DNA of 64,000 nt, taken from contig JBCEBZ010000111.1 in the NCBI GenBank assembly GCA_039206675.1, positions 756 through 64,755 of the forward strand, in the 5' to 3' direction. Position 1 is the stretch's first letter; each line of letters starts with the position of its first letter. Below the pieces are notes generated by a model. The model was not told the DNA's origin. It made no database searches and saw only the letters and a list, made by a program, of their open reading frames with translations. This DNA comes from Rhodococcus sp. (in: high G+C Gram-positive bacteria). GTDB taxonomy: Bacteria > Actinomycetota > Actinomycetes > Mycobacteriales > Mycobacteriaceae. Below, in pieces: positions 6,115 to 39,930 of the stretch. The translations under genes were made by a program, and so were the position numbers.

Positions 6115-9100
6115 TTGGGGTCGGGACATGCAGCGGGTAGTAGCGGTGCTCCGGAAGGAGCGTTTCCGCTGTCGGCTGCGCAGCGTGGCATCTGGTTCGC
6201 ACAACACGCGATGGGCGACGTTCCCCTCACTATCGCCCAGTACATCGAGCTTCGCGGCGACATCGACCTCGATCTTCTGAGCGAGGCCACCGTCCGCACG
6301 GGCCGGGAATTCGGCTCCGGGTTCCTGCGCCTCGTCGAGGTCGAGGGCATGCCCCATCAGTACGTCGACAAGTCCCTCGACGACGCCGTCAACTACGTCG
6401 ACCTCCGCGGCGAGGACGACTCCGTCGACGCCGCCGAGAAGTGGATGCGGGCCAACTACAGCGCCCCCGTCGACCTTCTCGAGGACCGCCTCGTCGTGGT
6501 CTACCTGCTCCACGTCGGCGAGAACCACTACTTCTGGTTCTGCCGGATCCACCACATCGCGCTCGACGGCTTCGGCGCGATGGCGCTGATCGCGCGCATC
6601 GCCGAGATCTACACCGCACTGGTCGAGGGCACCGAGCCGCCGGCCTGCCGCGCCGAGGACCTGGTCCGGATCGTCGAAGACGAGCAGCGGTACCGCAACT
6701 CCGACCGGTTCGCGAAAGATCGCGAGTACTGGGCCGAGCGCACCGCGCACCTGCCCGAGGCGCCGAGCCTGGCCGGTCGTGCGGCGATGGTCGGCAAGTT
6801 CGCGCGGCTTTCCTCCGAAGCGCTGCCCGAGTCCACCGCCACCCTTCTCGACGAGGTGCTCGGTGGCAGCAACGCCAGTTCCGCGCCCGTCGTGGTGGCC
6901 GCGTTCGCCGCGTACCTGGCCCACATGACCGACCGGACGGATGTCGTCCTCAGCCTCCCGGTGTCGGCCCGCACCACCGCCACGCTGCGCCGCTCCGGCG
7001 GAATGGTGTCGAACATCGTTCCGCTCCGACTCCAGATCACCCCGGAGATGACCGTCCCCGAGCTGGTCAAGAGCGTGCAGATCGAACTCACCGGCGCCCT
7101 GCGCCGCCAGCGCTACCGGCACGAAGACATCCGCCGCGACGCCGGCGCGCCCCAGGGGCAGCGCGGCTTCTTCGGACCCTCGATCAACATCATGATGTTC
7201 CACAGCGAGATCAAGCTGGGGACGGTCACCGGACACCAGAACGTCCTCACCACCGGGCCGGTCGAGGACCTCTCGCTGAACATCTACCAGGGTGTGGCCG
7301 GCAGCAAGATCCACATCGACTTCGAGGCCAACCCCAACCTGTACTCCGCGGACGAGCTGGACCGCCACCACAGTCGCTTCTTCGACTTCTTCGAGCGCTT
7401 CCTCGGCGCCGGCGACGACGCCTCGGTGTCGGACCTGGCCACGATGAGCGGTGAGGAATACGAGCAGGTCGTGACGGGGTGGAACGGCGACGTCGTGGCC
7501 CCGCCCGCCGGCACCGTCGTCGATCTGTTCGACGCCCAGGTCGCGCGCACTCCCGACGCGACCGCACTCGTCTTCGAGGGCGAGGAGCTCACCTACGCCG
7601 AGTTCGACGCGCGGGTGAACCGCCTCGCCCGGACGCTGATCGGCCGCGGCGTGGGTCCGGAGACGAAGGTCGCCCTCGCGATCCGCCGCTCCCTCGACTC
7701 GATGGTCGCGATGTACGCCGTCGTCAAGGCGGGCGCCGCATACGTGCCCCTCGACCCCGACCATCCCGCCGAACGCACCGCGTACGTGCTGGAGAGCGCC
7801 CGCCCGCTGTGCATCCTCACGGTGGCGCGGGACGGGCTCGTCTTCCCCGCCGGTCACGACGTCCTGGAGATCGACGCCGTGGAGTCGAGCGACGTCCCGG
7901 CGGGCCCGATCCGCGACGAGGAGCGCAACGCCACCCTCCGGGCCACGAACCCGGCGTACGTCATCTACACGTCCGGGTCCACCGGACGTCCGAAGGGTGT
8001 GGCGGTGAGCCACGCCGCCGTCCTGAACCAGGTCACGTGGATCGCGTCGCGTTACGGCCTCGACGCGAACGACGTTGTGCTGCAGAAGACCCCGACGACA
8101 TTCGACGTGTCGGTGTGGGAACTGTTCGCCGCACTCGCCTCCGGGTCGCGCCTGGTGATCGCCGCGCCGGAGGGGCATCGCGACCCCGCCTATCTCGCCG
8201 ACGTGATCGCGCGCGAGAACGTCACGGCGACGTCGTTCGTCCCGTCGATGCTGTCGGTGTTCGTCTCCGAGGCCGACCGCGAACAACTCGTCAGCCTGCG
8301 CGTCGTTCTCGTTGCGGGAGAGGCGTTTCCGCCTGCGGTCGCAGCGGCGTTCCGGGCGAAGTCCGGCGCCGGGCTGCACAACCTGTACGGCCCCACCGAG
8401 TTCACCGTGCACGCCACCGCGGGTGAGGTGGATCGGGAGTCCGTCCACACGATCCCCATCGGCACCCCGGTGTGGAACACCGAGGCGTACGTGCTCGACG
8501 GCCACCTCCGGCCCGCACCCATCGGATCCGCGGGAGAGCTCTACCTCGCGGGCGCCCAGGTGGCCCGCGGCTACGAGGGCAGGCCGGAACTCACGGCGGA
8601 ACGCTTCGTGGCCAATCCTTTCGGCGCGGCGGGCACCCGCCTGTACCGCACCGGCGACCTCGTCAAGTGGCGCGTCGACGGCAGCATCGAGTACCTCGGC
8701 CGCACCGACTTCCAGGTGAAGGTGCGCGGCCTGCGGATCGAGCTGGGCGAGATCGAGTCCGCGATGTCCTCGTATCCCCATGTGGCGCAGTCGGTTGTGG
8801 TCGTGCACGACAGTTCCCTCGGGCAGCGGCTCGTCGGTTACGTCGTCCCCGAGTCCGGTTCGGTGGTGGACGTCGACGACCTGACGGCCCACGTCGGCCG
8901 TGCGGTGCCCTCGTACATGGTCCCCGATGCCGTCACGGTGCTCGCCGAGATGCCGGTCGGCGCGAGCGGCAAGCTCGACCGGAAGGCGCTGCCCGAACCC
9001 ACGTTCGCGGCGGAGTCCAGTGAGTACGTGGCGCCCCGCAGCACCATGGAGGAGTCGATCGCCGGCCTGTTCGCCGAGGTTCTCGGTCTGCCGCGCGTCA

Positions 9101-39930: not shown

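Follow-up and report, generated by a model that had tools for sequence, protein, structure and literature searches.

Single genes that encode an entire multi-module nonribosomal peptide synthetase (NRPS) have been described in proteobacteria, with the kolossin synthetase (49.1 kb, 15 modules, 1.8 MDa) and SelB (59.9 kb, 18 modules, 2.2 MDa) as published cases (PMC10589681). In Rhodococcus, the most widespread NRPS gene-cluster family, GCF-1/GCF-5, combines conserved left and right arms with a variable nrps middle section, and members of its subclade 4a, which include R. jostii RHA1 and R. opacus 1CP, have 'one large nrps gene' beside an AurF block (PMC8477407). Most Rhodococcus NRPSs start with a starter condensation (C) domain, and 15–17 putative lipopeptide clusters per genome have been counted in RHA1 and R. 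opacus (PMC5550956). Here, we analyse a 64-kb stretch of DNA from Rhodococcus sp. (contig JBCEBZ010000111.1; hereafter the window), in which one open reading frame (ORF) at 6115..39930 on the forward strand carries a whole multi-module assembly line, as the genes for SelB and the kolossin synthetase do. It is very probable, in our judgement, that this ORF is the single gene for a canonical collinear type-I NRPS in a member of the opacus/jostii/koreensis clade of Rhodococcus, and we assign it, from its sequence and flanks, as an orthologue of a Rhodococcus NRPS that is documented and product-orphan in every strain and whose locus has already been catalogued.

Domain organisation and conservation of the synthetase

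The ORF runs for 33.8 kb from a TTG start to a TGA stop and encodes 11,271 aa (1,206 kDa, or 1.21 MDa), and its translation contains no stop other than the terminal one, in line with an earlier sequence-only reading of this stretch, which had described one uninterrupted frame without internal stops. Because an in-frame TAA lies two codons 5′ of TTG 6115, the frame cannot extend further upstream; GGAG precedes this TTG with a 6-nt spacer, and since the first Pfam match begins with residue 15 and the frame offers no other start before codon 33, TTG 6115 is the sole start that retains the N-terminal C-domain motif. By our own arithmetic, stops are expected at about 1.9% of codons in random DNA of 70% GC, so 11,271 open codons are not a chance occurrence, and the GC content of the ORF by codon position (0.72/0.47/0.90) is a typical coding pattern. 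RHA1 reportedly has six NRPS genes of more than 25 kb (McLeod et al. 2006); a literature search on RHA1 gene sizes and on terminal epimerization (E) domains returned nothing usable. The sequence-only reading had called the size exceptional for a bacterial gene, which was overstated, as the published single genes of 49.1 and 59.9 kb are 1.5–1.8 times larger (PMC10589681), and the Rhodococcus NRPS, with 33.8 kb, nine modules and 1.21 MDa, is large and well within the known range.

Pfam searches on twelve overlapping pieces of the protein returned the order C-A-T-E, (C-A-T)x6, C-A-T-E and C-A-T (A, adenylation domain; T, carrier domain), followed by a twelfth condensation-superfamily domain, typed below as E. 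Nine full C-A-T sets are present and collinear, every one above the Pfam cut-offs of the Condensation, AMP-binding, AMP-binding_C and PP-binding hidden Markov models (HMMs). The core motifs A3, A5, A7, A8 and A10 occur in 9/9 A domains, the serine of LGGxS in 9/9 T domains and HHxxxD in 12/12 C and E domains, eleven times as HHxxxDG and in the terminal domain as HHLVIDS. Module 1 comprises the C domain C1 (HHIALDG; residues 15–452, 6157..7470; PF00668), A1-T1 (7528..9237) and E1 with the GGRTPSD linker after it (9289..10758; HHLAVDG, EGHGRE and FNYLG; typed by TIGR01720 and motifs). Modules 2 to 7 occupy 10864..13953, 14023..17541, 17602..20730, 20791..24249, 24310..27423 and 27484..30600, and module 8 (30670..33786) is followed by E8 and a GGLTPSD linker (33853..35274; HHLVVDG; typed by TIGR01720 and identity). 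Module 9 (35362..38445) leads into the terminal E-type domain, here called Et (38509..39927; HHLVIDS, EGHGRE, RTVGWFT and FNYIG), which was typed by its neighbours in the Protein Data Bank (PDB) and by TIGR01720; all of these features lie on the forward strand.

An all-against-all identity comparison divided the twelve C-type domains into four clean classes, namely C1, which is 22–32% identical to the other 11, E1/E8/Et, which are mutually 49–51% identical, C2/C9, which are 55% identical to each other and 24–30% identical to C3–C8, and C3–C8, which are mutually 51–59% identical. The E-specific model TIGR01720 (cut-off 74.2 bits) was matched above its cut-off only by E1 (106 bits), E8 (99.7 bits) and Et (84 bits), and no match was found in any of the six C domains tested (C1, C2, C3, C5, C8 and C9). 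The E motifs HHxxxD, EGHGRE, RTVGWFT and FNY(L/I)G likewise occur in the three E domains. Alignment to PRK05691, a long PvdL-like model, placed C3, C5 and C8 on the first elongation C domain of the model (positions 1729–2173), E1, E8 and Et on its E domain (about 2790–3220), and C2 and C9 on the C domain that comes after the E domain (3256–3705). The best PDB matches of C2 were McyB, the PvdL C domain after its E domain, BacC, TycB1 and SrfA-C, those of C3 were 5U89, the FscG PCP-C didomain, Txo1/2 and TycC5-6, and those of Et were the E domains of PvdL, TycA, BacC and GrsA. For C1, they were the starter C domain of RzmA (rhizomide; 7C1H/K/P), ObiF1, CDA-PS1 C1 and EntF, and its best NCBIfam matches were the C domains of MxcG (324 bits) and EntF (209 bits).

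We type C1 as a starter-type C domain that would accept an acyl or aryl donor, C2 and C9 as DCL-type and C3–C8 as LCL-type domains by sequence, and E1, E8 and Et as predicted epimerization domains. The sequence-only reading had derived the domain order from motifs, and the HMMs, the internal clustering and the best solved-structure matches reproduce it. The motifs that it had assigned to the two C-domain types were found where it had placed them (LAPLQ..FH and HHILLDGWS in C2 and C9, PLS.AQ..MW in C3–C8), in agreement with the identity clustering, PRK05691 and the PDB neighbours, and HMM-based subtyping, which it had named as a possible refutation, agrees with its C and E assignments. Since domain order and subtypes are confirmed, the pattern acyl-D-aa1...D-aa8-(D)-aa9 proposed in that reading is again predicted: its D pattern follows from the confirmed domains, but the 'acyl' donor could be an aryl group, as the top scores of C1 are to MxcG and EntF.

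The carrier domains carry a corresponding distinction. T1, T8 and T9, which stand before E domains, have GGDSI and the E-partner signature [10 protein letters not shown], whereas T2–T7, which stand before C domains, have GGNS[LI]. Across 65 non-orthologous loci, GGDS[IL] was found in 101/101 T domains before an E domain, and T domains before a C domain had GG[HN]SL in 58/72 cases and GGDS[IL] in 14/72. The split between GGDSI and GGNS[LI] carriers, to which the earlier reading had drawn attention, is therefore real and general, and such a dichotomy has reportedly been published before (Linne et al. 2001).

Ten-residue specificity codes were drawn by alignment to a segment of GrsA, and GrsA itself returns its known code, DAWTIAAICK. 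The shared code of A1 and A5 (DVWSLALVHK) is that of RmdA_A3 (Ala3 of rhodamide), the code of A7 (DLWHLILVSK) is that of RmdA_A8 (Ala8 of rhodamide), and the code of A4 (DALFVGGIMK) is that of Rhp_A6, the Val domain of the rhodoheptin synthetase, from which A2 (DALFVGGVMK) differs at one position; these Rhodococcus domains are linked to Ala or Val by mass spectrometry, from which the rhodamide structure with its Ala positions was derived (PMC11586506). The Rhp (rhodoheptin) and Rmd (rhodamide) systems thus share four of the nine codes of the Rhodococcus ORF (A1, A4, A5 and A7), and they resemble it further in having a starter C domain, E/DCL pairs and Rhodococcus-type A domains. However, both terminate in a canonical TE16 thioesterase and not, like the Rhodococcus ORF, in an E domain, the Rmd assembly line is distributed among several genes, and the two have 7 and 14 modules compared to nine.

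The A9 code (DAWQFGLINK) resembles the code for Gln, which makes Gln a tentative call. A6 and A8 carry the codes DTGVVGAVIK and DAFFSALIWK, and A3 (15790–17290; DQKNLGNVTK) is an outlier, with 36–39% identity to the other eight A domains, SGSTGRPKP as its core motif A3, and the module-2 A domain of LgrA as its closest solved relative (420 bits, versus at most 322 bits for the others). Tentatively, the product may be written as acyl-D-Ala-Val-X-Val-Ala-X-Ala-D-X-D-Gln-like. Modules 3 and 5 also contain inserts between their C and A domains (about 139 aa at 15376..15792 and about 128 aa at 22147..22530, forward strand), which are homologous to each other (35% identity). Each consists of a degenerate copy of the first 55–85 A-domain residues, with sub-threshold AMP-binding matches to profile positions 3–54, and then about 30 residues like the C-terminal tail of a C domain; the inserts look like scars of an in-frame deletion of an A-T-C unit (a module) or of illegitimate recombination.

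To follow the gene across relatives, species-representative genomes were scanned with the terminal domain, and the last 10 kb of each orthologous gene were compared. The terminal domain is 91–96% identical in R. koreensis, three strains of R. opacus, R. jostii, R. wratislaviensis and several other Rhodococcus, 79% identical in R. tibetensis and 65–74% identical in four more genomes. Over the compared region, the frame is open and the stop position is the same in 13/14 Rhodococcus orthologues, so that neither the translation nor these relatives showed the stops or frameshifts by which the sequence-only reading had proposed to judge itself. Compared with eleven orthologues, every domain in the same region has a dN/dS of 0.05–0.39, with Et (0.11–0.32) comparable to E8. 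We regard the NRPS gene, on this comparative evidence, as functional and maintained under purifying selection. In the long-read draft of R. opacus DSM 44188 (L005), the NRPS frame is interrupted some 690 aa ahead of its stop (locus position ~9371), by an indel error or as a strain-specific pseudogene. On the strand opposite the window's NRPS lie an antisense ORF of 4,327 aa (23500–36483) and others of 1,000–1,560 aa, which show the usual shadow-ORF effect of coding DNA with 70% GC and are not genes.

Terminal E domain and chain release

The ORF contains no thioesterase (TE), reductase (R) or terminal C domain, and no chain-release function was found in the 64-kb window. The claim of the earlier reading that the ORF encodes all nine modules thus holds for the nine C-A-T sets, but the assembly line that they form is not self-sufficient. 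The window encodes a single alpha/beta-hydrolase, a class 2 lipase that carries a signal peptide (46242–47177), and its candidacy as the release enzyme was ruled out by that signal peptide and by its membership of a secreted lipase family. Et ends at ...[12 protein letters not shown], a few residues short of the GG(R/L)TPSD linker seen after E1 and E8, so that 0 aa follow the domain and a docking tail is absent, and there is no partner NRPS gene in the window. In place of the canonical HHxxxDG, of which E1 and E8 keep the DG, Et carries HHLVIDS, on which the earlier reading had not commented.

Among the fetched loci, gene-terminal E domains fall into two classes. Those with a tail of 0–7 aa carry HHxxxD[S/A], are followed by no NRPS gene and share the end architecture ...LCL-A-T-E-DCL-A-T-E, whereas those with a tail of about 20–33 aa (L021, L054, L073, L077 and L078) have HHxxxDG in 4/5 cases (the exception being L073, with HHLAVDA) and a DCL-starting NRPS gene about 0.1–1.3 kb downstream. 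Serine or alanine at the glycine position of HHxxxDG is conserved in the tail-less terminal homologues, and all orthologues keep the HHxxxDS variant. An independent set of database proteins, obtained by a homologue search with the terminal domain and made up of fragments of at most 856 aa with no full-length orthologues, gave the same picture, with S or A in 9/11 tail-less ends and G in 59/60 ends that had a tail of 11–60 aa and a readable motif, 11 further ends not being readable. The tail-less subfamily was found in Rhodococcus, Rhodococcoides, Lolliginicoccus, Williamsia and metagenome fragments, and it differs from the tailed class at a few further positions (V-M-P for S-Q-S, W-to-G and A-to-S). 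The residues linked to epimerase catalysis, namely the second His of HHxxxD, the Glu of EGHGRE and the N-Y of FNY(L/I)G, are invariant in both classes. A role of the variant Ser of HHxxxDS as a nucleophile was ruled out, since Ala replaces it in homologues.

The simplest reading of these sequences is that Et would be an active epimerase that gives the product a D C-terminus, with release in trans; because the ORF is without a thioesterase, a reductase, a terminal condensation domain and a docking tail, chain release is probably in trans. In the proposed mechanism, C1 would cap residue 1 with an acyl or aryl group that comes from a trans-acting source, and the nine A-T pairs would load nine residues. 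E1 and E8 would invert residues 1 and 8, which the D-specific domains C2 and C9 would accept, C3–C8 would form L-to-L bonds, and residue 9 would be inverted by the terminal E domain. This scheme predicts a nonapeptide, capped at its N-terminus and D-configured at positions 1, 8 and 9, which an unlinked trans-acting enzyme would release.

A comparable arrangement exists in the surugamide system, which has E domains in its last two modules, no TE in cis and a stand-alone thioesterase of the penicillin-binding protein (PBP) type that needs a C-terminal D residue (PMC11012974, PMC11735501). The Rhodococcus ORF resembles SurA/SurD in lacking a cis TE and in placing E domains in the last and penultimate modules, which leads to a ...D-D C-terminus. 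It differs from this Streptomyces system, in which the assembly line is split over two genes, in that no PBP-type gene (beta-lactamase fold) such as SurE is among the genes annotated in the window, and in that its predicted product has a capped N-terminus and would thus be barred from cyclising head to tail. Donor subunits of the TycA, GrsA and SrfA-A/SrfA-B type likewise end in T-E with a PCP_E-type carrier, and Et is homologous to the E domains of TycA and GrsA; the Rhodococcus ORF, in contrast, lacks both a C-terminal tail or docking segment and a neighbouring partner gene, and stops before the TPSD linker.

The locus and its gene-cluster family

All eight arm genes of GCF-1/GCF-5 (la6–la9 and ra7–ra10) were identified by Pfam on the expected sides of the NRPS. 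The left arm (3..2873, forward strand), corresponding to la6–la9 of PMC8477407, consists of the C-terminal part of an acyl-CoA carboxylase alpha subunit, an acyl-CoA dehydrogenase, a MaoC dehydratase and an HpcH/CoA-ester lyase. The right arm is an operon on the reverse strand (41616..46010), convergent with the NRPS, and consists of an AurF-family N-oxygenase (41616–42575), a prephenate-dehydrogenase (PDH)-like gene (42572–43492), a fused aminodeoxychorismate (ADC) synthase (43489–45705) and a type II chorismate mutase (CM; 45561–46010). It resembles a chloramphenicol- or corynecin-like precursor set, AurF/CmlI-like N-oxygenase included, and no monomodular A-T-R NRPS of the CmlP type was found within the window. 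Two forward-strand ORFs here (41580–42605 and 42602–43867), which have no Pfam match and appear conserved by tblastn, were considered as conserved unknown genes and rejected, as the phase of third-position GC marks them as antisense shadows of the AurF-like and PDH-like genes.

The locus therefore has the same flanks on both sides as the GCF-1/GCF-5 locus ('NRPS #5' type; Undabarrena et al. 2021, PMC8477407), and the lipase as well. In most orthologous loci, down to about 65% identity, the AurF operon directly follows the NRPS stop, as it does in R. opacus 1CP (L008), where the terminal domain is 91% identical and the AurF/TyrA/ADCS/CM block comes directly after it. Unlike the family at large, the window and its two closest relatives (L001 and L002) carry, between NRPS and AurF block, an inserted pair of genes seen nowhere else among the orthologous loci, a sigma-70 (ECF-like) gene and a divergent carboxymuconolactone-decarboxylase-family (CMD) gene (39983–41567). 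A further difference is that the nrps section of the reference strain H-CA8f consists of three genes with about 18 modules. The sigma-70/CMD pair has about 81% DNA identity to a pair on giant plasmids of Streptomyces clavuligerus and S. rimosus; a known-plasmid origin was considered and rejected, as megablast of the 3′ flank against plasmids matched only this pair to Streptomyces replicons.

Upstream of the NRPS lies an acetoacetyl-CoA-synthetase-like ligase (2925–4874), and the 1.24 kb between it and the NRPS start (4875–6114) have a lower GC content (~0.65) and no convincing ORF. This segment is presumably a regulatory region, in which neither an Rfam match nor a sigma-70-like promoter match was found; scans for Rfam families, promoters and terminators across the window and at the NRPS ORF borders also returned nothing. 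Downstream, beyond the lipase, come genes of fatty-acid catabolism, among them a FadD-like ligase (54106–55812), and then an Mce operon (55819–63908). Both ligases, the candidates for donor supply in the window, stand in catabolic contexts, and no stand-alone carrier protein was found in the window. Beside an enoyl-CoA hydratase, the FadD-like ligase and the Mce operon, a 533-aa protein with two TetR_N domains (51775–53376, reverse strand) represents a tandem or fused TetR regulator.

Alternative readings and significance

NRPS modules are repetitive, and the frame of L005 is broken near its end, so the giant ORF might be an artefact of assembly, in which repeated modules were collapsed or expanded, or else a pseudogene in decay. 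We consider this extremely unlikely, as the core motifs are kept in every domain, 13/14 orthologues retain the frame and the same stop, and dN/dS is well below 1 throughout. Repeat collapse or expansion is also improbable because DNA identity between the module copies is only 66–74% and no exact repeat reaches 60 bp. An NRPS subunit that ends in an E domain normally passes its D-configured chain to a subunit that starts with a DCL domain, and the assembly line might therefore be incomplete in this ORF, its partner being encoded elsewhere in the genome. The E-partner signature of T9 and the DCL-starting genes that follow gene-end E domains in the five unrelated loci with tails are consistent with such a hand-over. 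However, the hand-over domains have their tail and, L073 excepted, HHxxxDG, Et has no tail at all, and neither the window nor any examined orthologue or distant homologue with its end architecture (L001–L016 and L068) has an NRPS gene behind it, which makes this reading very unlikely. Alternatively, Et could be a specialised chain-terminating domain that hydrolyses the chain or transfers it to an acceptor, with or without epimerization, as terminal C domains do elsewhere. This would fit a recognisable tail-less subfamily, a domain under purifying selection and the lack of a release enzyme encoded nearby, but the residues of epimerase catalysis are invariant, a position that is Ser or Ala is no nucleophile, the subfamily signature may be a mere clade marker, and the surugamide synthetase already combines an ordinary terminal E domain with release in trans, so that we think it improbable. 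We likewise give little credence to the broader proposal that the tail-less terminal E domain, which always comes after ...E-DCL-A-T, is a dedicated chain-terminating subfamily of Corynebacteriales NRPSs that does more than epimerize, be it self-release, provision of a D,D C-terminus to an unlinked off-loading enzyme, or transfer to an amine from the adjacent p-aminophenyl/nitroaryl operon.

The neighbouring operon offers another possibility, in that its CM, ADC synthase, PDH-like and AurF-like enzymes might supply a p-amino- or p-nitro-aryl unit, such as p-aminobenzoate, p-nitrobenzoate or p-amino/nitro-Phe, as the C1 starter or as the substrate of one of the A domains without a predictable code. 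Most orthologues have the operon directly at the NRPS stop, the top-scoring relatives of C1 (MxcG and EntF) are C domains that accept aryl acids, A3, A6 and A8 have no recognisable code, and PMC8477407 treats the genes as one cluster. Yet the same study ties the right arm to corynecins, which are chloramphenicol-like small molecules, and not to the peptide, and reports that the NRPS section varies freely between the conserved arms. Moreover, the window contains no aryl-AMP ligase or aryl carrier protein, R. olei (L013) retains the NRPS end without the right arm, and the convergent operon is not co-transcribed with the NRPS. The coupling is improbable on balance, and any link of the right-arm operon to the NRPS is hypothetical. 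Several points also weigh against the canonical collinear NRPS that we favour. No clearly NRPS-dedicated release domain, MbtH-like protein, acyl ligase with an acyl carrier protein, or transporter lies within the window, and the codes of A3, A6 and A8 give no recognisable substrate. The code assignment overall, including Gln for A9, rests on the alignment to one GrsA segment, and the orthologue frames were compared over their last 10 kb.

Taken as found, the canonical NRPS described here is one more orphan lipopeptide-type synthetase in a clade with 15–17 such clusters per genome, and as such it matters little. Its sole mechanistic interest lies in how an assembly line without a TE, ending in a tail-less E domain, releases its product. 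In practical terms, it offers a well-defined target for product discovery, being an intact, conserved gene whose product has a predictable D/L pattern, with Rhodococcus-specific A-domain codes that allow four of its nine residues to be predicted.

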